From contig NW_021826087.1 of assembly GCF_006345805.1 (NCBI RefSeq), positions 1-14,862 on the forward strand: a stretch of DNA of 14,862 bases, given 5' to 3'. A program made the translations under genes and the position numbers. The DNA is from Octopus sinensis. Its lineage: Eukaryota. The notes beneath the pieces are model-generated. The model ran no database searches, was not told where the DNA came from, and saw only the letters and a list, made by a program, of their open reading frames with translations. Positions 1 through 14,862 of the stretch are shown piece after piece (the first letter of the stretch is position 1; each line of letters begins with the position of its first letter).

Positions 1-49
1 AGTAATATACTATGATAATAACAATAAAATAAAGGTATGTATTGGGGTA

Positions 50-281
50 TTAATAATTGGCTTGTTAAATCGTTAGAGACTTAAAAAAAAGAAGATTTCT
101 CTAATCTGTTGTGGCTGTTTACACGTTCAAATCCTAATATGGTCAAATTTATCTTTATCTTCTGGTATTTCAGGTTAAATAAAATAAACTACCATTGATC
201 GTATTACTTCCGATCGGATCGATAAACTCACAGCCTAATAAATTAGTGGCGTTGTGTGGCTAAATTAAAAACAATAATGAA
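50..281 (+). mobile_element. Old, diverged SINE copy (family B, related to 6930-7139)
   Basis: Collinear degenerate matches to 6930-7139: aatcgttag, acgttcaaatcc, ggtcaaattt..cttt, aataaaataaactacca, aaattagtggcgttgtg..ctaaattaaaaacaat. It runs into an (ATT)n tail. Confidence 0.55.
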
Positions 282-302
282 TATTATTATTATTAATATT
301 AA

Positions 303-361
<59 letters not shown>
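282..361. repeat. (ATT)n microsatellite, probably an expanded SINE tail
   Basis: Near-perfect att run directly after the SINE-like segment. Confidence 0.95.
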
Positions 362-362
<1 letters not shown>

Positions 363-454
363 GTAGATATATGTAAATATATATGATAATAATTAATATA
401 GGTAGCGACGTGCAATGTTTTACTAAAATGGAAAACTGTATTTGTCATTGAATA

Positions 455-620
455 TGACTAAGGGTGTTATAAACTCCTACATTTCTAGAAATAAGAGCTA
501 AAATGCCCTAACGCTGCAGTCAAAGCACATAATTGTGTGTTATTATGTACTTTGACTCCAACACTAGAGCGTTGTAGCTCTTATTTTTAGCAATGTAGGT
601 GTGTCTAACACCATTAGTCA
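455..620. repeat. Fold-back palindrome / MITE-like element (79-bp arms, 8-nt spacer)
   Basis: 455-533 aligns ungapped to the reverse complement of 542-620 at 65/79 by hand count (tgactaagggtgtta...caaagcacataat versus tgactaatggtgtta...caaagtacataat). Confidence 0.9.
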
Positions 621-835
621 CACAAACATACACACACGCGCACACGCGCACATATACACACACATAAATGTATGTAATATATATATTATATATAGATATA
701 CATATATGATTTTGATTTTTCCAGTTTCAGTAAATGAGCTGTGGGCCATGCTGGGGCCACATATATATATATAATATATATATACATATTGTATGTTATA
801 TATACATATATATATATGTATAATATAAACACATC

Positions 836-893
<58 letters not shown>

Positions 894-955
894 TGTATAT
901 TTCTATTTACGTATATATATGTACAATTAATGATTACCATATATATATATATATC
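621..955. repeat. Compound (CA)n/(TA)n microsatellite region
   Basis: Direct inspection; interrupted by a SINE tail at 707-760. Confidence 0.95.
707..760 (-). mobile_element. Solo SINE 3' tail fragment
   Basis: The reverse complement gtggccccagcatggcccacagctcatttactgaaactggaaaaatcaaaatca matches the tail at 3863-3920. Confidence 0.8.
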
Positions 956-1370
956 TACAATAAGTTATGATGATGCAAAAAAATAATAGAACTTGAAATA
1001 TGTCAATATGTATATTTTATCAATATTTATCAGAAGCAACGTAAATGCCAAAGCACGAAACTCTTGATTCTTGAGTTACTTTATTCATTGTGCTACATAT
1101 TATATACATATATATATGCGTGTGTGTGTGTGTGTGGATGCAAATAAGTATATGCATATGCAATTATATACATAGATATATTTGTACGTTCATCTCTGTT
1201 TATGTACACACATCACACACCTATACAAATATGGCGGGTTTGAAGTAAGGTGTCAGGAAGAGAATAAATCAATAAACAAATGTGAAATCAAGGAACATGA
1301 ACAAGTATGAAAGATATTGTTGCACAGGTATACAATGCAAATATTATTAATTACACATTAAGTGAAACTT

Positions 1371-1426
1371 GGTGCAGCAGCATGGCCGCAGTCGAATGAC
1401 TGAAGCAAATAAATGAATAACAGAAT
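1371..1426 (+). mobile_element. Solo SINE 3' tail fragment (family A tail)
   Basis: ggtgcagcagcatggccgcagtcgaatgactgaagcaaataaa matches the tail of 6100-6468 (read on -) and 12075-12115. Confidence 0.75.
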
Positions 1427-1489
1427 TACATAAATACACAAAAAAGCTTTAGCACACGCATATAAACATTTATATCTTTGTATGCATAT

Positions 1490-1524
1490 CTGTATGTATA
1501 TATTAAGTATATAATATATATATA

Positions 1525-1560
<36 letters not shown>

Positions 1561-1908
1561 TATATATAAATATATATAAGGTATATATATATATAATATA
1601 TATATATATGAGTGTGTGTGTGTATACCACATACATGTATGCATACATACATTAATGTGTGTATAAATATATATATATATAAACATACTATATGTATGTG
1701 TATGTATGTATGTATGTATGTATGTATGCTTGTATATATACACATACACAGACAATATAACTCAAATATGTACGTGAACATACATTCCTGCTCATAATAT
1801 TAAATATATAAACATATTAAACATATAGATATGTTCATTAAACATACGGCGTGCACATATCTATATACTATCACATACATATACGTATATAAGAAAATAT
1901 ACTACTCA

Positions 1909-1966
<58 letters not shown>

Positions 1967-2389
1967 TGTATGTATGTATGTATGTATGTATGCATACACA
2001 AATATATATACATATATATACACATATATAAATATACATGCTTATAAATATGAGGATATATGAATAGAAGCATGTATATAAATACATATATATATATATA
2101 TAAACACACATATATATGTATATGCATGTGTGTGTGTACATATATATTATATATATATATATATATATGTGCGTGTGTGTGTGTATATATATAAACATAT
2201 GTATACAGGTGTATGTGCATGTATGCATGCATATATATATGTAAATATGCATATATATATATATATTATATATATATATATACATCTGTCTGTCTATCTA
2301 TCTATCTCGCTATAAACATATACATCCACACACTGAAAGCCTATACACTTATCCACATGTACACATAATTATGCATATATCACATTAGG

Positions 2390-2440
<51 letters not shown>

Positions 2441-2442
2441 TA

Positions 2443-2494
<52 letters not shown>

Positions 2495-2613
2495 CATCTG
2501 TCTGTCTATCTATCTATCTCGCTATAAACATATACATACACCAAATGAAAGCTATACAATTATCCACATGTACACATAATTATGCATATATCACATTAGG
2601 ATATATATATATG

Positions 2614-2645
<32 letters not shown>

Positions 2646-2700
2646 ATATATAGATATATATATATATATATATATGTTTATATAGACAACATATACATAT
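1490..2700. repeat. Large compound microsatellite field: (TA)n, (TATG)n, (TG)n
   Basis: Direct inspection; (TATG)n runs at about 1700-1728 and 1937-1992. Confidence 0.95.
2281..2660. repeat. Tandem duplication, period 212 bp
   Basis: tacatctgtctgtctatctatctatctcgctataaacatatacat...tatccacatgtacacataattatgcatatatcacattaggatata starts at both 2281 and 2493. Confidence 0.9.
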
Positions 2701-3464
2701 ATGATACATACAAACGCACAGACATACTCACACGCCCAAATTAACATAGGAATTTATTATATGTAGATGTTGGTAGTCTTATGTAAATACATGTGATCCT
2801 GATGTATGAAATATCTTATATATACAAGACTGTATGCATACATGGTAATACCTACATGTGAGTACATGTGAATTATTACTTTGATTATATAATAAAATAC
2901 TGTTTTGGATGTGTATCGTCGCTTACAACCCGGTGGTCGATGTCACTGGAACGGTTGCATCTTTTTGCATGCTGAATAAAAGAATGTGGTTATATATATA
3001 TAACGGATTATATACGTGGCAATCATGTGTGTGTACAAATCATATATGATATGACATTGGAGTATAGAAGAATTTTAGAGAACAAGTGGTTTTCATGATA
3101 AACAACCCTAAAGAACGAAATAAATGGCGAAGGACGAGTATATAGAAAACAAACAAACGGGAAGCGCAATGGCGGTACGCATAACAATGTTGTTAAGAAA
3201 TAAAGAATGTATAAACAAAAAGTACGTAGTGTAGATTTTTACAGTACATGCAGGAGTGGGAAGCGTGTATGGTACATGTACATTTGCTGATGGGTCGGAT
3301 AGAAGTAAAAGACGAATGTTAAAGAAATGAAAATGCATGGAAATGAGAAGCGAAAGTGGTATGAAAGGGAAACAAGGTAAACTTGCAGTAAAAGATGGAG
3401 GTGAAATAGGCTCTGGAAATATTAAAAGAAAGGAAAAAACTATAATGTTATTCAGTGAATATCT

Positions 3465-3645
3465 GTTTCTTTATTACCCACAAGGGGCTAAACATAGAGG
3501 GGACAAACAAGGACAGACAAACGTATTAAGTCGATTACATCGACCCCAGGAGTAACTGGTACTTAATTTATCGACCCCGAAAGGATGAAAGGCAAGGTCG
3601 ACCTCGGCGGAATTTGAACTCAAAACGTAACGGCAGACGAACTGC
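3465..3645 (-). mobile_element. 5'-truncated SINE (family B) with 17-bp TSD
   Basis: The body taactggtacttaatttatcgaccccgaaaggatgaaaggcaaggtcgacctcggcggaatttgaactc is the reverse complement of 6995-7070. Perfect direct repeat ttattcagtgaatatct at 3448-3464 and 3646-3662. Confidence 0.92.
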
Positions 3646-3690
3646 TTATTCAGTGAATATCTTTGATGATTCTAGAATAATGTTTCTTTC

Positions 3691-3923
3691 GTGGAGGTGC
3701 AATGGCCTAGTGGTTAGGGCAGCGGACTCGCGGTCGCAGGATCGCGGTTTCGATTCTCAGACCGGGCGTTGTGTGTGTTTATTGAGCGAAAACACCTAAA
3801 AAGCTCTACGAGGCTCCGGCAGGGGGTGGTGATCCCTGCTGTACTCTTTCACCACAATGGCGGTGCCCCAGCATGGCCACAGCTCAAGAGCTGAAACTGG
3901 AAAAACAAAAACAAAACAAAAAA
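3691..3923 (+). mobile_element. tRNA-derived SINE (family C head joined to a family A-type tail)
   Basis: Pol III A box tggcctagtgg (3703-3713), B box-like ggtttcgattc, head homologous to 12759-13030, (CAAAA)n tail. Confidence 0.88.
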
Positions 3924-4172
3924 CATGAAATTAATCCAGTTCAAATTTGAATTTAACTGGTTCAGAAGCTGTTAAGTTTTTGAATTGTTTGTATATGCAA
4001 AGAAGTGCTTATGGTCATCGATATAAGCACATGGGTTCAAATATTGACCATTCAATTTTGTAGTTGGAGATACCTTTATCTTTCAAATTATATTATATTA
4101 TATTTCAAAATATATTTCGTTAGTGTTGTAATGTTTCTTTTATTTTCATGTTTAAACACATGTACGTACTGA

Positions 4173-4300
4173 GTATATCTGGATTTCAAAGAGCTTTCGA
4201 TAAAGTTTATATAAAATTGTGTGCCGCTGATATTTGTAGAAACCTCGGCGTAGTGTTCAATATATTTTGAAGGAATTTACTGTTTAGAGGACGTGTACGT
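4173..4300 (+). pseudogene. Fossil CR1/L2-like LINE reverse transcriptase fragment
   Basis: gta tat ctg gat ttc aaa ga- gct ttc gat aaa gtt reads VYLDFK-AFDKV with a 1-nt deletion. It is followed by KLCAADICRNL, compared with KLxAxGIxGNL in CR1-type RT. Confidence 0.55.
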
Positions 4301-4559
4301 CTGTGAAGATAACTGCATTGAGGGAAGGAAGAAACTAATGCGTTTCCTGTTTATCTTAGCTAATGAAGAAATTATCAGTACAGTTATAACTTACTTTAAA
4401 GTTATGTTTATCAAAATAGATTTTGTGACTCATAGCCACTAAGGAACTGTTTAAGGATTAAATTTAGAAAGGATCGGGAGACCTTTGATCTTACATTCAA
4501 ACTGAGAGGAAGTTTAACCATATAACTTTCCTTCTAGTTTAAAACATTAAAGCCTTATT

Positions 4560-6050
4560 TATTAATGCATGAACAGAAAAGAGAAAAAATACAGTATTCT
4601 TTCCCAGCACAAGTGAAAACATGCATGCGGAAAATGTTGTCCGTTGTAAGATATATATAACAAAATGCAAACAATACAGGACAGTTAATACGGCCTGAAA
4701 TAGTGAGCTGGAGGCCAAGACAGTGGTTGCTAAGACTTGAGAATCTCAAGACTTCGTCATGATCCCGCTATACTCAGGAAAACTGGCGACCAAAGTATGA
4801 GTCACCAACATGCAACACCACAGGGATCAGACCAGAGTAATAGCAATAATAGAGGGGCACGAAAATAATTATTATACTCAAGCCCCCTCTCTACCAGAAT
4901 AAAACTGGTATGTCGCTGGAATTTTGTGTGTTAGTCATACTCAAGGCATCCCAGATCATTTCGTGTTTGAAGAGTTTGTACAAATTCGAATGATAGTGGA
5001 AAGAAGGAAGTCAGAATGCTACATATATAGGAAATAGACTATCTCGAGGGTATTTTTGCTGTACAGGGGAAGACTAAGGTGCCTTGACTGCTACGTACAC
5101 CAAAACTTCTGAAAGTTAAACAACAGAAGTATGGAAGCAAGAAAAAAAGAGACCCAACCAGAACAAAGACTTTTTCAGAAAACACAGACAGAAGGGGGTT
5201 CAGATGCACCGATACTCACCTCATCCCCACGATTATCCCCACCACTAACACCAACGTACACAAAAGTAAACTACAGGGGAAACAAAAGCAGCACACTTTC
5301 TACACTGTCCGATCCGTCAGATTTGCAAGAGACAAACAGTACAAATGTACCTGGTTGGCATGTTGTAGAAAGGCCTTCAAAAAAGGAAGAGAGGTACGAT
5401 AGACGAATCCGCAGCTTTGACCACCGGAACGCAAAATGTCGATAACGCCGAGTCAAATAACAGTATAAAAAAGAAAATGGCTCGGCCTAAAAGTCAAACT
5501 AATCGAAAAAACAAGAACAACAATAACCACAAAAACAATCCCTAGAGTTGTAGCAACAAGAACGGTAGCAACAACAGAAACAATAACAACAGCATCAGAA
5601 GAGAAAGAAACCTCAGCTAGAATATCAACCAGTGGCAAACCAGAACAACGCCAATACAAAGAGCAGAAGCAATATCAATCACAACAGAAAGAGACACACC
5701 AAAAGCAGCAGAAACAGGTGCTGAAACTACGGCAGCAATAACAAAAGCTGAAAATACTACAGACTCAGTGACAACATCTCTCACAAGTGAGTCTCTCAAT
5801 GACACTGTTCACCAAAACGAGAACGAGGAGTTGGTAGAATTATGTATGCGCCAATAGAAAGAAATTTTCACCTCTGGTAACAGCCTCGATATGATAGCCA
5901 TATCAACACCTCACAAAATAGACTCCTTGTAAGAACCACATCAGGTGTGTACCCTCCACTCCCAAATGACGTCAGGAACTAAATTATTAAGACAAAAGGC
6001 TTTTTTTAGGGTCCTTACAAAAGGTAGAGAAAAGGTTTCGTAAACAAGAT
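4560..6050 (+). pseudogene. Decayed L1/Tx1-like LINE ORF1 (RRM-like region, degenerate CCHC knuckle, long low-complexity tail)
   Basis: One frame reads TKCKQYRTVNTA*NSELEAKTVVAKT*ESQDFVMIPLYSGKLATKV*VTNM. 4948-5034 reads IPDHFVFEEFVQIRMIVERRKSECYIYRK, then DYLE after a frameshift, which fits VEGRxPxCxxCxxxxHxxxxC with C>Y and H>Y. GWHVVERPSKK and a T/E/K-rich A-biased stretch follow. Multiple stops and frameshifts; boundaries approximate. Confidence 0.6.
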
Positions 6051-6099
6051 TAGAATAATGACTATCCTGAGCACTTGTTTACTTTCTCGCCAATTTAAA

Positions 6100-6272
6100 T
6101 TTATTCTTTTGTTTCATTCATTAGACTGCGGCCATGCTGGGACACCACCTTGAAGAATTTTTAGTCGAATGAATCGACCCCAGCCTGGTACTTATTCTAT
6201 CACTTTTGCCGAATCGTTAGTTACGGGACATAAACATACCAACACCGATTGTCAAACGGTGGTAGAGGACAA

Positions 6273-6309
<37 letters not shown>

Positions 6310-6468
6310 ATGGGTTATTTCAGTTTCCATCCACCAAATCCACTCACAAGGTTTTGGTCGGCCCGAGACTATAGTAATAGACATATGCCCATGGTGCAAC
6401 GCAGTGAGACCGAACCTAGAATCATGTGGCTGTGAAGCAAGTTCCTTACCACGTAGCCACACATACTT
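6100..6468 (-). mobile_element. Full-length composite SINE (family A) with internal (CA)n
   Basis: On the - strand: head gtggctacgtggtaaggaac with B box-like ggttcggtctc, body ccttgtgagtggatttggtggatggaaactga, internal (TG)n, tail ggtggtgtcccagcatggccgcagtctaatgaatgaaac. Homologous to 8170-8465 and 11483-12118. Confidence 0.9.
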
Positions 6469-6529
6469 GATGTTTATGCATGCATACATTCAGAGAGCAA
6501 TACCGTGTTGGTACTTTTCATGAGCAGAT

Positions 6530-6680
6530 TTACTCTTTGCTCGGTAGAGTGACATGTCCCAATGTTTTGATTCAGTGAATAGGGATAATTTAATCTTAAG
6601 AAATGTAAAACGATTGGGTATGGGTTTTTCTGTTTTTATTGGCATGTTCATGACACTTTCCAGGGCCTCCGAGATTGGTT
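6530..6680 (+). pseudogene. Fossil L1/Tx1-like LINE reverse transcriptase fragment
   Basis: From 6551 it reads DMSQCFDSVNRDNLILRNVKRLGMGFSVFIGMFMTL, compared with DxxKAFDxVxxxxLxxxLxxxGFGxxFIxWIxxLY in L1-clade RT. Confidence 0.45.
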
Positions 6681-6766
6681 GGAGAAAGAAAGTAGTCTTT
6701 ATCTGGAAGCATTGCTTAAATGGTTGCTATAGACTTCATTCAGTTAAAGGCAACCAAAGGCTAGAT

Positions 6767-7265
6767 CAGGGGTTCTCAACCGGAGTCTATATGACCCTGA
6801 GGGTCCATATAAGATCTTGTTGTTATAGTCTATGTGCAATATGCTGATTATATTTCTACAATATTCAAAATATTTTAGCAATTTTTTAATACAATTGCTA
6901 ATAATATTTAATTATAAAATACGTTGTAAGGCGGCGAGCTGGCAGAATCGTTAGCACGCCGGGCGAAATGCTTAGCGGTATTTCATCTGCCGCTACGTTC
7001 TGAGTTCAAATTCCGCTGAGGTCGACTTTGCATTTCATCCTTTCGGGGTCGATAAATTAAGTACCAGTTATGTACTGGGGTCGATATAATCGACTGCCCC
7101 CCCCCCCAAATTTCGGGCCTTGTGCCTAGAGTAGAAAAGAATAATATTTAATTATAAAAATACCATAGGATGTTTTTTTATATATAAGGGATGGTTATGA
7201 AGGTCCAGTTGTGTAAAATAGGAAACAAAAGGGCCGATAGGGAAAACGATGTTTGAGAAACACTG
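6767..7265 (+). mobile_element. hAT-type (Charlie/Buster-like) MITE, copy 1, carrying a nested SINE
   Basis: TIRs caggggttctcaacc (6767-6781) and gtttgagaaacactg (7251-7265) match at 12/15. 8-bp TSD ggcTAgat (6759-6766) and ggaTAgat (7266-7273). Confidence 0.88.
6930..7139 (+). mobile_element. Full-length SINE (family B) with ~20-23-bp TSD
   Basis: Runs from ggcggcgagctggcagaatcgttagc through B box-like gagttcaaattcc to ccttgtgcctagagtagaaaag. Flanked by aataatatttaattataaaa(a)tac at 6900-6922 and 7140-7163. Confidence 0.92.
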
Positions 7266-7314
7266 GGATAGATGATGGCGTTAAGCCGGCCGACCGTCCT
7301 AGCAGACCACAACG

Positions 7315-7455
7315 TATTTTGAATTCAGAGCGCAAAGAACCACGAGAACGTCCTGCCTGGCTCTCAAACGATTCCACCAGTTCACCGGTCAGGGCTAGCT
7401 CATTGTTTTCTGATCTCGAAAGAATGAAAAGCAAAGCTGACGTCTGCAGAATAAA
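7315..7455 (-). mobile_element. Two old family B SINE fragments
   Basis: tttgaattcagagcgcaaag...aacgattccaccagttcaccg is the reverse complement of the head. gatctcgaaagaatgaaaagcaaagctgacgtctgcagaat is the reverse complement of the body. Confidence 0.55.
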
Positions 7456-8169
7456 TACTGCAAGATATCTCATCTAACAGCCTACTGCTTCAAGATTCGG
7501 CTGCTCTATCTAGCAGATCAGGAGACTGTGCATGGACTCCATTATTATCGTTCACCGAAGTAATCAGAAGAGAAGGTGTGTATTCGACGAGTGACTTGTT
7601 AATTTGCAAGTGGAAGTTCCATCTAGTTATGGCTATGAGCTGGCAACAGGAAATTAATCCAGAATATTTTTCTGAAGCCTCTGATGTCCATTCAACGGTT
7701 TAAGTGCATAAAATTATAAAACATAGTGCTTGCATAGATAAACTTTTGGATCATATTAGATCATGAAGGAAATATATTGTTTATTGCTGCAACTTAACAG
7801 GCATTTTCTAATGCGACGGCGTACGGTAAAGGTAATATAGTTAGTATTGGTAATGTTTTGTTTAAATAGTTTAGATTAAAAGATTAGAGATAGGCAGCTA
7901 GAAGAAAATGATTCTGTAAACGCTCTGTAAAAACTGAAGTAACCCCTCGGTCTTAGGCGTACCTGCAATTAATTCATTCCAAATTTAAAACACATCTCTG
8001 ATAATGGATCAGTTTCGTATTCTCTGGAATATGAACTATCAAATTATTCGTATCTGTTTTTGCAACAACGATTTTATGTCTGATTTTAATAGAATCCTTT
8101 ACTAGCTGTTTATTAAGAAGTAAATATAAATGGTGGACGCATTGCAAACAAATATGGACTAAAAATATA

Positions 8170-8457
8170 GGCGCAGGCATGGCTGTGTGCATGGCTGTGT
8201 GGTTAAGAAGCTCGCTTTGCAAGATCATGTTTTAGTGTCCAATCCAACAGCGCTGCATTTTGAGCTTTTACAATAGTTCTGCGCTAATCAATGCCTTCTT
8301 AGTGAATTTGGTGGACGGAAACTGTGGTGAAGACCGTCATACATATATATGTATGTGCGTGTGTGTGTGTGTGTGTGTGTGTATTTATGCCTGTGTGTCT
8401 GTGTGCGCACCCATGTCGTTATTAACTCGTGTTGGGGTGTGTGCACCTCCTTGTAAC

Positions 8458-8465
<8 letters not shown>
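8170..8465 (+). mobile_element. Composite SINE (family A), 3' part missing
   Basis: ggcgcaggcatggctgtgtggttaagaag head, agtgaatttggtggacggaaactgtg..gaagaccgtc body, internal (TG)n, then tgttggggtgtgt..ccttgtaactta. Confidence 0.82.
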
Positions 8466-8522
<57 letters not shown>

Positions 8523-8535
8523 ATATATATATATA
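8465..8535. repeat. (CT)n(TA)n compound microsatellite
   Basis: Direct inspection. Confidence 0.95.
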
Positions 8536-9799
8536 TAAGGTGCGATGGGTAAATTGTCGCCATTTTATATTTTTAATTTCGTGCATGCGGCTTGTTTGTT
8601 TTTGATTTTGTTGACTGCACAGTATAGTAGGGTCAGTTGGACACCATCTGTGAGAAAAAACAGCACCATGAGGCAATTCACTCTGGCGGATGTTTGGAAA
8701 TGACATGCTGTACTACTTGACATTAGCGCCGGGAGCTCCAATACGAATATTTCAGAGTGTTTGGGTGTCAATCTGGGGACAGTGCAGAGGATTCGGAAAG
8801 AGTTGGATGAGTCTAATGGTGATTACGGAGGTAGATCACGAAGGCACGGCAGCTCAGAAAATTCACTCTGACCTTTCTGGTAAGAAAAGAACTGAATTTG
8901 TTTATGATATCCAGGCCATGATTGATAACGATCCCTCCAAGTCAATCAGGTCCATCGCCAGTAACATGGAAGTGTCTGTGTTTCTTATCAGACAGTTAGT
9001 GTATGAAGACATTCAGTATTCTTCATACATGGTGAAAAAGACCAACTTTTGTCCTAAGCCATCAAAGACAAGTGGACTGCGCTACGAAGCTTTTGGACAA
9101 GCTCAAGCAGCCTCTCTGACCGAACATGCTTTGGTTTTTCTCAGACGAGAATATTTTCTGCCAGGATAAGATGGCGAACACACAGAACAGCCGTTGGCTT
9201 GTCGTGTCCCCAAGAATGTACCGAGAGTGATAAAAATCAAACATCCAGTCAACATCATGGTGTTTGGAGTGATCACTAGTGATGGTGACGTTATGTCTCC
9301 ATTCATCTTCCCACTCGGCCTCACACTCAACAAGGAGGCCTACATCAAGTGCCTGGAGGAGGTAGTGCTGCCCTGGGCGAAGAGGGTGGCTACTGGAAGA
9401 CCCTATTTCTGGCAAGATGACTCTGCGCTTTCCACACAAGCAGATCATTTCTACGACCACATCACTCCTAACATCTGACCACCTAACTCCCCACACTGTA
9501 ACCCACTTGATTATTATGTATTGGGTGCAGTTGAGTAAGAGATCAATAAAACTTCTTGTAACACCAAAGATGAACTGAAGGCAAGGATTATGGCAGCATT
9601 CACCAACTTAAATAAGGAAACCGTCCAGAAGAGCTGCAGGAGATTCCGAAGTTGTCTGGAGGCCGTGGTTGAAGCCAATTTACTCTTTAGTATTTCAAGA
9701 TATTTTTATGTAATTTTGGTAAATATATCTGTAAAATGAGATGTCAGTGTTATTTTCCTTTTTGCGTAATTTAGACGACAATTTATTCACCACACCCTG
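8536..9799 (+). mobile_element. Tc1/mariner-superfamily DNA transposon, maT (DD37D)-like, near full length and inactive
   Basis: 26-bp TIRs at 8536-8561 and 9774-9799 match at 19/26, with all differences being transitions. The right end reads CAGGGTG on the - strand. TA on both flanks; length 1264 bp. Confidence 0.92.
8668..9690 (+). pseudogene. Disrupted DDD transposase
   Basis: HTH-like NISECLGVNLGTVQRIRK and DPSKSIRSIASNMEVS; catalytic motifs WFFSDE (D at 9144), WQDDSA (D at 9419) and PPNSPHCNPLDYY (D at 9509); C-terminal RFRSCLEAVVEAN. Several stops and frameshifts. Confidence 0.92.
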
Positions 9800-9873
9800 T
9801 ATATATAGTCTACTGTTTCGTGATAGTAAGTTCAACAAAAAAAGTACTCCATTTGGTGATAGAAAATATTATT

Positions 9874-10134
9874 TAATAAACACAATATATATATTTTATG
9901 AGCTACTATTAGTTTCATGCGACGAAAAGAGCTCAGACAGTATTTTTTGACACATCTGATGTCTTCACACAATCGTCAGGATGAGCCCATCGGTCTGTTT
10001 TTAGCATGTTATAGCCATGTGTGCACATTCCCAGGATTGCACGAATACTCTAAACATTTAGAAAAATACTGCCTGAGCTGTTGTCAAAACATGAAACTAT
10101 TAGTTGTTCATAAAAGTATTTATTGTGTTTATTA
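9874..10134. repeat. Long degenerate fold-back palindrome (~261 bp)
   Basis: taataaacacaata..ttttatgagctactattagtttcatg..agctcagacagtattttt pairs with aaaaatactgcctgagct..catgaaactattagttgttcataaaa..tattgtgtttatta. The register continues inward at lower identity to a centre near 10004. Confidence 0.85.
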
Positions 10135-10339
10135 GTCCCGAACTCTCGCCCCTCCATCTTCACCTCTATATACGTATTTATTTATTTACATTACCTCAAC
10201 ATCCAAGTTTCCTCATTCTACATTGAGAGAAGAAAGAGATGGACGATTCAATTCGATGCTGCTGCCGCATTATGTCGTACGGGAACGAGAAGATTTGCAT
10301 CCCCCCAACCAAGAATCGGAAGTAACACATGTCCTTGTG

Positions 10340-10437
10340 GAAGCTGTTGTGCGCGGCTGAAGAAGGCCACAGACATACATTATGATTTTTATGAATCTGT
10401 CTAAAAGGCCCGAAACATATGTACCGCTGAATCCTTC
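10340..10437 (+). ncRNA. Type I hammerhead ribozyme motif
   Basis: Stem I gcgg 10353-56 / ccgc 10424-27, plus distal gaag 10340-43 / cttc 10434-37. Core CUGAAGA 10357-63. Stem II ggcc 10365-68 / ggcc 10407-10, extended by acaga/tctgt. GAAA 10412-15. Stem III C-auau-G. Cleavage triplet GUA 10421-23. Confidence 0.72.
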
Positions 10438-10469
10438 GCCTCATGTTTTTATTTTTATTTTATTTTGAT

Positions 10470-10470
<1 letters not shown>

Positions 10471-10543
<73 letters not shown>

Positions 10544-10577
10544 ATATGTATAGATATATATATGTATATATATATAT
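10471..10577. repeat. (TA)n microsatellite
   Basis: Direct inspection. Confidence 0.95.
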
Positions 10578-10754
10578 TAAGATCCACAAAGAGCAAAACT
10601 TATCTGCAGCTCTTAGTGGTTCAAATCGGAGATGCAATCTATGCAGGTGGTCTTTTAGAACATTGGTTTAGAAAAGCCAAATCAGATGCCATGGTGAGGC
10701 TATGGTGTAGGTACAGGAGGTGGTCAAACTCTGCATAAGGAATAGACAACCTCC

Positions 10755-10788
10755 ACACACATACACACCAACACACACACACACACAC

Positions 10789-10834
<46 letters not shown>

Positions 10835-10835
10835 T
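10755..10835. repeat. (CA)n/(TA)n microsatellite
   Basis: Direct inspection. Confidence 0.95.
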
Positions 10836-10839
10836 ATGC

Positions 10840-11065
10840 ATGTGTCTTTGTTTCTTTGTTTGTCCCACCACCACCGGTTGACAACTGGTGTTGGTGTGTT
10901 TACGTTTTCGTACCCTAGTGGTTCGGCCTAAAAGATCAATAGAATAAGTACTAGTTGTTTTTTAAAAAAAGTACTGGGCTTGATTCATTCGACCAAAAGT
11001 TTTTTCAAGGTGGTGATGCAGTGTGTCTATAGTCTATTGATTGAACCAAGTACAAGATTAAAGAT
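10840..11065 (+). mobile_element. 3' half of composite SINE (family A)
   Basis: ttgacaactggtgttggtgtgtttacg...ggttcggc...atagaataagtacta...aagtactggg..ttgattcattcgac...ttcaaggtggtg...tgaaccaagta is collinear with 11685-12115 and with the reverse complement of 6100-6270. Confidence 0.8.
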
Positions 11066-11334
11066 TTGCGTCAACAAGACAGAGGCAACGATATTGCTCA
11101 TCTAAGATTGTAGGTTTCACGAGTTTGCAACGTCGAAATCTACAGTTCCACTATCCGTGTCTCGCAGGATTCATATGTGATGAATGAGACTGACAACATA
11201 TTTCTAACTTTTCATATCGTAGCTTATCTTTACAGTTAATATTTTATAAGAGTGTTGTACAGAAGACATATTGCATAGTGTATAACCTCCTCACAGACAC
11301 ACATAAGTGAACACGCAGATATATTGTACATATT

Positions 11335-11475
11335 TGTGTGTGTGTATGACGCATATGCATGCGTAAGAATGTACATATATATATATATATATATATCTGT
11401 GTGTGTGTGTATGTGTGTATGTATGTATGTATGTATATATGTGTGTGTGTGTATGTGTGTGTGTGTGAGTGTGTG
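11335..11475. repeat. Compound (TA)n/(TG)n/(TATG)n microsatellite
   Basis: Direct inspection. Confidence 0.95.
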
Positions 11476-11482
11476 GCTTACA

Positions 11483-12118
11483 AGCACAGGCGTGGCTGTG
11501 TGGTGAAGGGTTTTTTTCCCAACCACATGGTTCCGAGTCAAGTTCCACTTCGTTGCATTTTTGGTAAAGCCTTGTGAGTGGATTTAGTTGACGGAAACTG
11601 AAAAAAGCCCGTCGTATACAGACATGCACACGTATATGCATGTGTGTGTGTGTGTATCTTTATGCTTGTCACCCAAATGCCACTTGACAACCGGTGCTTG
11701 TTTGCTTACATCTCTATAACCTGGCTATTCGGCAAAAAGAGCCTGATAGAATAAGTGACCGGCTTAAAAAAAAGTACCGAGATCGATTTGTCGACTAAAC
11801 TAGTGGTTCTGAGCCGTTGTCCATTTAGCTCTTGGGGTTCCATATAAAGTTTTGTTGGTCAAACTTTTTTGCAATGAATTGGCTATGCTTCTACAAAACA
11901 CGAAATACTTAAGTTTTTTTTATACAATTCTTAATAATATTTAATAATAAAAAAATAATTGGATTTATTTTTAACGGTCAAATGGTTAGGAAGGTCCATC
12001 CTAGTAAAAGATGAATCAAAGGAGTCCATAGATTTAAAAAAATGGTGAGGAACTTTGGACTAAACCCTTCAAAGCAATATTCAGTATGGTTGCAGTCCAA
12101 TGACTGAAACAAGTAGAT
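11483..12118 (+). mobile_element. Composite SINE (family A) interrupted by a MITE
   Basis: Head gcacaggcgtggctgtgtggt, body aaagccttgtgagtggatttagttgacggaaactgaaaaaagcccgtcgta. After the MITE it resumes with ccttcaaagc...gcagtccaatgactgaaacaagta. Confidence 0.87.
11801..12057 (+). mobile_element. hAT-type MITE, copy 2
   Basis: Perfect 8-bp TSD gacTAaac at 11793-11800 and 12058-12065. Degenerate TIRs tagtggttctgagcc and ggtgaggaactttg. Interior collinear with copy 1 once its SINE is removed. Confidence 0.87.
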
Positions 12119-12224
12119 ATACGTGTGTGTTTGTGTGTATGCGTTGAAATGTTTTTCTGTACATAAATATAGGATCTTCAAAGCGAATGACGTTAGGAGA
12201 AAGTCTCTAATAGAAACTAAGTTC

Positions 12225-12330
12225 ACATGAGCAACATTGGAACTGAGAATCTTCAAAATTTTTAGGTCATACACTGGAACACAACTAACTGTCTTGACCT
12301 GCCCACACCAGTAAAAGTGAGGCTTACAAA
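12225..12330 (+). pseudogene. Possible LINE RT C-terminal fragment
   Basis: Reads ESSKFLGHTLEHN*LS*PAHTSK, compared with ExxKFLGxxxDxKLxWxxHI. Short and degenerate. Confidence 0.3.
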
Positions 12331-12391
12331 ACAATGGTAACAAGTGAAAAAAAAAAGGTTGCAAACTTTCTACAAAAGGATTACTGTAGAC

Positions 12392-12739
12392 CAGAAATTT
12401 TCAACCATTTTTTACCGTGAACTTCTTTCATTACTATTTTATTCTGGTGGAAACCCATAGCTATTCGATGTTTAAAAACTAGTTTTATAGAAGCTTCTTC
12501 CAAAATTGCTATTTTGCTTTTTCACACAATAACTTGTATAGGTTGAACTGTAAAATGTTAGAGAAGGAAGCCTCGCTGTTTCTTGCAGTACATACCAATA
12601 CATAAAACTAAATCAAAATATTTTTCAGGGGGTCTTTAAAATACTAATTTAGATTCCCTATTTACTATTTTGTTATGTGGTTCCACAACATCTTATATGG
12701 ACACTCAGGGGCCATATGAAACCCGGTTGAGAACCACTG
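12392..12739 (-). mobile_element. hAT-type MITE, copy 3 (longer variant, opposite orientation)
   Basis: The reverse complement of 12690-12739 (cagtggttctcaaccgggtttcatatggcccctgagtgtccatataagat) matches 6767-6815. The other TIR is cagaaattttcaacc. TSD is degenerate: ctgtagac versus ctgttgta (5/8). Confidence 0.82.
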
Positions 12740-12758
12740 CTGTTGTACATTTATATTT

Positions 12759-13030
12759 GTTTGCTCCTTCTCGAGCCATGCCGGGCTCATAAGGGCCGGT
12801 TTCCCAGTTTCATTGGCGTATAGGTTCCCCACCTGGACGGGACGCCGAGCTGCTGGAGGAAAGAGTGAGAGAAAGTTGTGGCGAGAGGGTCAGCAGAAGT
12901 TCGCCATTACCTTCTGTAGGAGCCGTGTGGAGCTAAGGTGTTTCGCTCATAAACACACACATCGCCCGTCTGAGATTCGAACCCGCGATCCCGAGTCCGC
13001 TGCTCTAACCACTAGGTGATGTGCCTTCAC
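12759..13030 (-). mobile_element. tRNA-derived SINE (family C)
   Basis: On the - strand: gtgaaggcacatcacctagtggttagagcagcggactcgggatcgcgggttcgaatctcagac, with A box and B box ggttcgaatc. Possible TSD atttatattt at 12749-12758 and 13033-13042 (low complexity). Confidence 0.88.
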
Positions 13031-13214
13031 ATATTTATATTTACATACAAACAAATATATGAATTTGTCTATATGGTGAGGCATCTTTTCTTTTAAGCAT
13101 GCATGGAATACACGGTTATGTCCTAACTTTATCTTGCTTACATTGTTTTCTCATATTTATTCATGAATATTTTCTAGTGTGTTTAGAATAGTAAAACTCC
13201 AAGATCCGTCTTGT

Positions 13215-13450
13215 TATTCCTGCATCTTTACAGACTCATTTTCAGGTTGATTTGATTTTGGCGTGTATTGCTTCCGCTTTTTTGTAGGCAGAACCAATGC
13301 GATTCTGTAGATATTGCTTCCAGGATTTGAATCTTGATTGTTAGATTTATTCCTCGTCATTTAGATACTAATTATTGTTTGTGACCATCGGTTATTTTCA
13401 GTGTGTTGATTTTGGCCTTGTACTGTACAATTAATATTGCTTCCCTCGTT
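13215..13450 (-). mobile_element. Possible Penelope-like element remnant (GIY-YIG C-terminus, duplicated)
   Basis: The - strand reads TREAILIVQYKAKINTL and KIQILEAISTESHWFCLQK/AEAIHAKIKST, compared with the xEAxxIxxxxPxLN end of Penelope ORFs. Internal direct repeats are present. Confidence 0.3.
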
Positions 13451-13551
13451 AATCATCTATCTATGTGGAATTCTGTAAAGAAAAAAAAATGTGTTGCCCA
13501 CCAACATTTTCTGTCTATCTTTGTCGTGAAGTGTAATGTACACACACGCAC

Positions 13552-14755
13552 CGAGGGTGGGGGCCGTCCAAAGTAATGTAAAAGTGGAAGCAACATTTCT
13601 TTATTTTCTGCCACAAGTTCAAATTGCAAAGATTGGTTGAATAACTCATTCTCTGCACTGCTTTTTCTCTTTGTTATTTTTCAACACAGTACATAATGAC
13701 AGTGCAAGCAGAAACAATGTACGGTCATTAAGGTCTCGACCCATGAGGTCTACAGGCTGTCTGACATCCATAGAAGGCTACAGAACAATGTGCATTGATT
13801 GATGAAGTTTGAAGAAGAAGAAAGTAGCGCTGAAGACAAACCACGCCGTAGGAGACCATGAAATGTCAGAGGATAGAGGAATCATAATCTGTTAACTTGT
13901 TGTACAACTGGACTGTGCTCAAAGTGCATTACAAAAGATTTAGAATACTTTGGGTGACGATTAGTGTGTACCTAGGAGGTGCCCGATAGTTGATAGTAGA
14001 TCTGAAGGAAAGAAAGGCGGAAATCTACTCTGATTTGCTGGAAGGGTTTGAAGTTAATGAAGTCGATTTTTTCACAAACTGGTGACAGGGGATGAAACGT
14101 GAACGGATTATTATTATACAGATATTAAGATCCAGTTCACTAAATGGCTCCCCCACCTCTTATTCAAGGCCTAAGGACTTCAAGAAACAATGATTAGGAC
14201 ATAAGGTCATGGCAATTGTTTTACTTTTTATTTTCTTTGAAACTATACAGGCGTCATTATCCTTGATTTTTCTGCGACTTGGCTGTTCTATGACGACGAT
14301 CAGTAGTACACTAAGGCACTCAAAAAGCACAGAGAAGCAATTAAGTGGAAAAAGACTAAACAAAAATCTGAAAACGATCTACATTCACGATGAAAATGTG
14401 CGATCACATACACGCGTGCACACATCAGGCAATCAATAAGCACCGGTGAATTGGACTGGTCAATGGTCTCCATCCACTGTACTGTCCGGATTTGGAGTTA
14501 AAATCACTTCCACTTGTCTGGTCTAATGAATGACAGCCTTCGGAAACAAAGATTTGACGATACAGACCGCGTGATAATGGGTGCGAAGAAGTGGCTACAA
14601 TAGTGCACGCCTAAATATTTTGAAAAAGGATGGGTGAGATGGGTTGATCGATGGCCCAGATGCGTCACCTCTGAAGGAGACTATATTGAAAAGCATCATT
14701 TGAACGATCTACAGCAATTAATAAAAAGCTATGGCAGTTTTGGAATTACTTCCAG
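13552..14755 (+). mobile_element. Mariner (DD34D-like) DNA transposon relic
   Basis: Left end cgagggtggggccgtccaaagtaatg; only an attactt remnant of the right TIR survives. About 1.2 kb, containing a decayed transposase. Ends approximate. Confidence 0.8.
13696..14696 (+). pseudogene. Heavily disrupted mariner transposase
   Basis: QKQCTVIK..DIHRRL, EDKPRRRRP, LVTGDET* (D at 14091), KVMAIV, HDENVRSHT (cf. HDNARPH), HPLYCPDL (cf. HPPYSPDL) and RWPRCVTSEGDYIEK. Confidence 0.9.
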
Positions 14756-14756
14756 T

Positions 14757-14785
14757 ACACTCACACACACACATGCACGCACGCA

Positions 14786-14820
<35 letters not shown>

Positions 14821-14830
14821 ACTCACACAT
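14757..14830. repeat. (CA)n microsatellite
   Basis: Direct inspection. Confidence 0.95.
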
Positions 14831-14862
14831 GTAAGTATGTAATGGTGTGTATCTATGTATCT

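Follow-up and report, generated by a model that had tools for sequence, protein, structure and literature searches.

A type I hammerhead motif with an unusually long second stem in an abundant octopus repeat, probably of Penelope-like origin

The window analyzed here, a stretch of 14,862 nucleotides of Octopus sinensis (assembly GCF_006345805.1, contig NW_021826087.1, positions 1–14,862 of the forward strand), contains at 10340–10437 a motif with the sequence features that define a type I hammerhead ribozyme. It sits close to the 3′ terminus of a dispersed, high-copy repeat of ca. 330 bases. We consider it probable that this is the hammerhead of the pseudo-LTR (pLTR) of an octopus Penelope-like element (PLE), or of a non-autonomous derivative that such an element mobilizes, and that the window holds a 5′-truncated copy. 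All features below are on the + strand unless noted otherwise.

The conserved positions occur in the order C3 U4 G5 A6 N7 G8 A9, G12 A13 A14 A15.1, and U16.1 H17. From 5′ to 3′, the motif comprises the 5′ strand of stem I (GCGG, 10353–10356), the catalytic core box C3–A9 (CUGAAGA, 10357–10363; variant-free among the contig rows listed), an extra nucleotide between A9 and G10.1 (A10364), stem II (10365–10411), the core box G12 A13 A14 A15.1 (GAAA, 10412–10415), a palindromic stem III (10415–10422), and the 3′ strand of stem I (CCGC, 10424–10427). Stem II begins with GGCC/GGCC (10365–10368/10407–10410; pair probability, about 0.59), whose arms enclose a 38-nt insert (10369–10406) with an internal loop, a second helix (agaca/tgtct, 10371–10375/10398–10402), and a variable loop in which contigs carried indels and substitutions at 10384–10403. 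C10411 is unpaired or bulged, as judged from the sequence and constrained folding. Stem III is the perfect palindrome ACATATGT, which gives 2 bp and an AUAU loop in the monomer and an 8-bp duplex between two molecules. The position of cleavage predicted from the hammerhead consensus is after GUA, H17 being A10423 (10423/10424). A sequence scan found the core and the three helices claimed in the preliminary description, as well as the perfect palindrome and its 2-bp stem III. All three helices can form and helix I is open-ended, as in type I hammerheads, but the hammerhead is not the minimum-energy fold in its wider context.

The copy of the repeat in the window (10135–10473) is pLTR-like and 5′-truncated, and its sequence ends in GATCAAT (10467–10473), the shared 3′ end; its extent was read from a plateau of contig depth and from loose ends. 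Over 9800–10465, we compared contigs of four of 24 runs, three large and one small. The large runs (X1, X2, and X9) are presumably genomic, carry three organism codes, and come from two studies, and one of them is possibly the window's own source. The small run (X6), whose RNA nature is a guess, served as a source of sequence copies. The summed contig depth at 10421–10443 was 701,336 in X1, 537,880 in X2, and 83,247 in X9, and the single-locus contig depth was about 30–65, 55, and 5–6, respectively; the resulting ratio of ca. 10⁴ is not a copy number, as overlapping contigs overcount. From the deepest single contigs (6,417 in X1, 25,000 in X2, and 538 in X9), it is fair to infer hundreds of near-identical copies per variant and thousands in total.

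The depth plateau begins near 10135 and climbs toward the 3′ end, in X1 from 57,512 at 10122–10144 to 486,683 at 10214–10236. Among the 24 of 567 loose ends listed, 5′ ends fell at 10135, 10175, and 10215, and 3′ ends at 10455–10461. Thirty-one contigs of X1 depart after 10455 into diverse TA-rich sequence (agreement, 0.69), and contigs departing before 10175 and 10215 also enter TA-rich sequence. The distance from the predicted cut to the shared 3′ end is ca. 40 nt in the contigs and 50 nt in the window copy; a U-rich 3′ tail (10428–10473), seen in contigs and sequence, leads up to that end. In the window, a (TA)n microsatellite found by repeat scan forms the 3′ flank (10472–10577, no strand assigned) and probably represents the target site. 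A fixed 3′ end soon after the hammerhead, 5′ truncation, and an AT-rich target, all expected of a PLE, were found among the 24 of 567 loose ends listed, and the depth, the loose ends, and the lone window copy indicate a large, multi-copy, mostly solitary family of PLE type. No tandem copy is present in the window, so that the repeat is solitary at this locus and does not show the head-to-tail arrangement of retrozymes there; none of the 15 of 19 contig joints listed connects the 3′ end with the 5′ part of the repeat. One X6 contig (record 24) runs beyond the common 3′ end (past 10455) into an AC-rich stretch. This stretch could recall the anole PLE, which has an AC-rich region where RT starts and an optional tail, and it could equally be flanking DNA.

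Other repeats surround this copy. Its 5′ end is abutted by a separate 261-bp element (9874–10134, no strand assigned), identified by self-comparison and contig depth, which is an imperfect palindrome that ends in TA and has terminal inverted repeats of 23 nt. This element is multi-copy, is far less abundant than the hammerhead repeat, and is presumably MITE-like. A 166-nt imperfect palindrome at 455–620 (78% self-complementary) is possibly another MITE. Two decayed transposase-like stretches with stops and frameshifts (8540–9800 and ca. 13700–14720) matched no Pfam family, and we take them from their motifs to be Tc1/mariner. The best match of the open reading frame at 9170–9475 was an uncharacterized protein of O. 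bimaculoides (71% identity, 70% coverage; three hits among five candidates). Short interspersed repeats with 68–91% identity (3529–3641/6982–7095, 3706–3857/12876–13016, and 6109–6355/10841–11049/11566–11764) are, we assume, probably octopus SINEs. The region 4500–5860, A-rich on the + strand, has open frames that overlap, one of which includes a Cys-x4-Cys stretch as well as Thr-rich repeats; it is possibly a decayed retroelement ORF, and its frames had no Pfam or protein match. A TA-rich array contains a tandem duplication of ca. 200 bp at 2341–2700 (2341–2434 vs 2552–2645, 97%).

We then asked how often such a motif arises by chance. The core boxes alone were not significant, with two matches in the window against 0.64 expected (26 of 200 shuffles reached two), and the second match (13830–13863) was rejected as a hammerhead because it has no helices. 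The full three-helix type I descriptor, a check recommended in the preliminary description, gave the 10340–10437 site as its sole match on both strands of the window. It matched 15 of 3000 dinucleotide shuffles of bases 2701–14862, and none of 3000 when a palindromic stem III (up to 10 nt) was required, a rarity that is somewhat post hoc since the descriptor was composed after the motif had been seen and permitted the mismatch at 10.1. A relaxed scan that included the U3–A8 core found no second hammerhead on either strand of the window. Beyond the window, pattern scans matched 15 metagenome and 13 prokaryote-genome loci and no locus among viral sequences; all 28 loci were rejected as GC-rich chance matches, with neither stem III/I nor BLAST similarity to the window.

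The other recommended check, a search with Rfam models, failed to recover the motif: none of the 83 Rfam matches in the window, and none of the three in 10100–10470 at E up to 10, was a hammerhead. Rfam hammerhead families such as Hammerhead_1 share the catalytic core with the octopus motif, but no Rfam hammerhead model detects it, probably because its stem II is long. Relaxed hammerhead descriptors with longer loops are already in use. In the giant squid, 235 Rfam hammerhead hits have been reported (PMC6962438).

Folding models, which leave tertiary contacts out, gave a mixed picture. Over 10335–10445, the hammerhead-constrained fold (−18.2 kcal/mol) is 2.9 kcal/mol above the minimum (−21.1 kcal/mol) because a competing hairpin in this copy (10342–10358, −6.5 kcal/mol) occupies the 5′ strand of stem I and C3/U4. 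The pair probability of that strand is 0.014 in this segment and 0.41 in 10345–10435, where the hammerhead is the minimum-energy fold. The folding z of 10335–10445 was 0.65, and 145 of 200 shuffles folded equally well. As a monomer, the lone window copy probably has little or no cleavage activity. In at least two other subfamilies (12 contigs of X1 and eight of X2), the sequence diverges just 5′ of stem I, upstream of 10347; by eye, these lack the hairpin that hides stem I, and they may fold better. Two pairings of the preliminary description proved less likely than their alternatives. Its stem II extension acaga/tctgt has a pair probability of 0.04 against 0.55–0.58 for agaca/tgtct, and its distal stem I gaag/cttc has 0.014–0.018, the constrained fold pairing 10337–10341/10435–10439 instead. 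A contig change at 10398 (X2 and X9, by eye) disrupts only the terminal pair of agaca/tgtct but the middle pair of acaga/tctgt.

The motif had also been described as having an A·C mismatch at 10.1–11.1. A10364 can indeed face C10411, but it is better read as the extra nucleotide usual in PLE hammerheads, with G10365 as 10.1. On this sequence reading, the odd base would be C10411, the third C of 10409–10411, which is either unpaired before GAAA, facing A10364, or bulged. The G10365–C10411 register, in which a C bulges and a G10.1–C11.1 pair lies next to the core, loses 3.4 kcal/mol in stability against GGCC/GGCC with an unpaired C10411. In the same X6 contig (record 24, 10215–10455), all seven gap letters are explained elsewhere, so that it has the same length as the window at A10364 and C10411; therefore, the odd base is not private to the window copy.

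Regarding stem III, its energy is +2.4 kcal/mol as a hairpin and −7.0 kcal/mol as an 8-bp two-molecule duplex. A reciprocal dimer with the 8-bp palindrome reaches −36.8 kcal/mol versus 2 × −12.5 kcal/mol for monomer hammerheads. The 8-bp intermolecular stem III that had been proposed is thus favored in that the dimer lies 11.8 kcal/mol below two monomers, but the unconstrained dimer minimum (−45.8 kcal/mol) is not a hammerhead.

To compare copies, we used the 40 of 93 substitution rows and 12 of 15 indel rows listed, many of which come from one divergent contig. At least 20 substitution rows fell at 19 of the 187 positions in 10135–10321, and none at the 90 positions of 10347–10384 plus 10404–10455, among the 40 of 93 rows listed. 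The difference between the ribozyme arms and the 5′ part (Fisher's exact test, p = 4 × 10⁻⁴ among these rows) refers to block limits set after inspection of the data, and 10347 and 10384 are also points at which divergent contigs are clipped. When the count was restricted to majority alleles, 10 of 187 positions were substituted (p = 0.018), or 11 if 10208 (56% in X9) is counted. Loop II (10384–10403) held two substitution rows and five of the 12 indel rows listed. The lower number of listed variants in the arms than in the 5′ part is consistent with selection on the ribozyme, without proving it. No compensatory change was seen in the stems because the arms are invariant among the 40 of 93 substitution rows listed.

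The indels include one that creates AATAAA. The window copy has AAAA at 10403–10406, and other copies have two added bases at 10402/10403, giving AATAAA 17 nt before the predicted cut. This form accounted for a depth of 5010 of 5010 in X2 and about 7640 of 14905 in X1. That AATAAA serves as a poly(A) signal is a guess. We found no description of an AATAAA-before-hammerhead layout, including in the available part of PMC6765202. One could go further and regard the family as an independent ORF-less element, present as thousands of dispersed monomers in several octopus species, in which the long stem II is a functional module that sets AAUAAA 17 nt before the cut, with the U-rich tract behind it. 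We regard this as a long shot. If true, folding and trans-dimerization via the palindrome would choose between polyadenylation and self-cleavage of read-through host or element transcripts at nearly the same bond.

The PLE reading, in turn, draws on anatomy as well as on insertion pattern. The PLE hammerhead consensus CUGANGAH-G..C-GAAAN-palindrome-NUH (PMC4209133, Fig. S3) fits the octopus motif, which has the extra nucleotide between A9 and G10.1, palindromic 15.2–16.2 plus loop 3, a helix I of 4 bp within the 2–5 bp range, and U-rich flanks. PLE hammerheads normally carry this extra nucleotide, and they cleave weakly and as dimers (PMC4209133). PLE insertions mostly lack their 5′ part and retain a single terminal repeat (bioRxiv 10.64898/2026.07.22.740005). 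For the anole PLE, AT-rich DNA is nicked by the element, reverse transcription starts at fixed sites 3′ of the hammerhead, and the hammerhead cleaves only with protein and is dispensable for insertion in vitro (PMC11167929). In O. vulgaris, PLEs are active, with 31 recently active families and 336 recent insertions (PMC13282606). The preliminary claim of a type I hammerhead in a mobile family is therefore supported both by the fit to the PLE consensus and by the high copy number seen in contig depth. Its further suggestion of a PLE or retrozyme origin holds in part: a mobile high-copy family with the PLE consensus was found, but no RT or GIY-YIG ORF was found in or beside the window copy (Pfam found no family in any of 18 window ORFs tested) and no tandem copy in the window. 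We rejected 10136–10288 as the C-terminus of a PLE ORF: eight of 16 variants were synonymous in that frame against 4.8 expected (p = 0.06, or 0.19 as the best of six frames). For 10136–10285, no protein homolog was found except one spurious match to a repetitive unnamed protein.

If the repeat is a PLE insertion, reverse transcription of a source RNA would have begun at a fixed point, ca. 40 nt 3′ of the ribozyme, with nicked AT-rich DNA as the target. Reverse transcription would usually halt early, leaving only the last few hundred bases, so that insertion by target-primed reverse transcription would yield a 5′-truncated copy. In two terminal repeats of one transcript, or in two RNAs, the ACAUAUGU palindromes would pair as an 8-bp helix III, and each core would cut the partner strand after GUA. 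Hammerhead cleavage proceeds by 2′-OH attack and leaves a 2′,3′-cyclic phosphate and a 5′-OH. The element's protein would probably assist folding.

Three other explanations were weighed. The repeat could be a scattered monomer from a non-LTR retrozyme; in its active form, the retrozyme would be a head-to-tail array cut into circles of ca. 330–350 nt and mobilized by a PLE. The unit length within the 150–450 bp range, the absence of an ORF found in the repeat, and the 2-bp helix III with a palindromic tetraloop, as in invertebrate retrozymes, agree with this, and solo monomers of retrozymes are common and scattered over chromosomes. Against it are the lack of a tandem copy in the window and of a 3′-to-5′ return joint among the 15 of 19 joints listed (short-read contigs being compatible with arrays at other loci), the 3′ end fixed ca. 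40 nt beyond the cut while 5′ ends vary, and the 4-bp helix I with a PLE-type extra nucleotide instead of the canonical 6 bp. We consider a retrozyme unlikely; retrozymes have been proposed to derive from pLTRs, so that the two readings overlap (bioRxiv 10.64898/2026.07.22.740005).

Very unlikely, in our view, is a SINE-like element that was moved by a non-PLE LINE and had captured a hammerhead (compare the Schistosoma Sm-alpha SINEs), even though SINEs make up 11.6% of O. vulgaris (PMC13282606) and non-LTR elements in general show 5′ truncation and microsatellite flanks. A faint U6atac-like stretch in the variable 5′ part of the repeat (10272–10390) might also speak for such an origin, but its 16.1 bits fall short of the gathering score of 33 (E = 0.077) and it is probably a chance match; moreover, no tRNA gene is present in the window and the ribozyme has PLE-specific traits. 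The least probable explanation is that the motif resembles a hammerhead by chance or is a relic, with cleavage lost throughout the family. The lack of a hammerhead among the 83 and the three Rfam matches, the unfavored hammerhead fold, and the off-consensus C10411 would fit it. Eight of nine predicted Xenopus retrozyme dimers stayed uncleaved in vitro (bioRxiv 10.64898/2026.07.22.740005), and the insertion of the anole PLE in vitro without need of its hammerhead (PMC11167929) points the same way. These observations are opposed by the rarity of the descriptor in shuffles (15 of 3000, and none of 3000 once a palindromic stem III was required), by the location at the 3′ end of a mobile repeat, which is the usual site of PLE hammerheads, and by arms that are better kept than the rest of the repeat among the rows listed.

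Comparison with known systems also places the octopus motif close to PLEs. The hammerheads of Drosophila virilis Penelope, Aedes aegypti, Adineta vaga, and Saccoglossus (Cervera and De la Pena 2014, PMC4209133) form a comparison set with a small palindromic helix III. The octopus motif shares with them type I topology, CUGANGAH with the extra nucleotide, a short helix I, the palindromic helix III, U-rich flanks, mostly solitary dispersed copies, and the dimer model. In contrast, its stem II has a 38-nt insert with an internal loop and a second helix, whereas loop II of PLE hammerheads is 3–9 nt in the alignment of 56 motifs (PMC4209133, Fig. S3). Its extra C lies before GAAA or is bulged in helix II, whereas D. 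virilis Penelope has a bulge in the middle of helix II, and those hammerheads belong to PLEs, while no ORF was found in or beside the octopus copy. In Poseidon PAc of Anolis carolinensis (PMC11167929), as in octopus, the hammerhead lies slightly upstream of the insertion end, targets are AT-rich, and unaided folding is poor; however, the PAc hammerhead has a minimal core with the ORF beginning in stem II and its protein-assisted cleavage has been shown, while cleavage of the octopus motif is a prediction from its sequence. With the metazoan non-LTR retrozymes of mussel, coral, and axolotl, it shares a unit of ca. 330 bp, the lack of an ORF, thousands of copies (PMC7229834, bioRxiv 10.64898/2026.07.22.740005), and a 2-bp helix III with a palindromic tetraloop (PMC7229834). 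Retrozymes, however, form tandem arrays that give circular RNA and mostly have a canonical 6-bp helix I and loop 1/loop 2 contacts, whereas the octopus copy is solitary in the window. The octopus motif likely belongs to a PLE family and would act in dimeric form, as PLE hammerheads do, its second stem being unusually long. Long-loop variants may already have appeared in published work on Terminons or on PLE hammerhead dimers. We found no prior description of an octopus or cephalopod hammerhead family in the literature, including the main text of PMC13282606 in its available part, whose repeat library may already annotate the family.

That PLE terminal repeats carry hammerheads has been recognized since 2014, and what is added here is an abundant octopus family missed by Rfam. 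Its thousands of copies in several related genomes provide a natural set for studying selection on the fold and the tolerance of an extra base before GAAA. The octopus copies would also be useful for distinguishing between cis, trans, and protein-assisted action of PLE hammerheads (PMC11167929).
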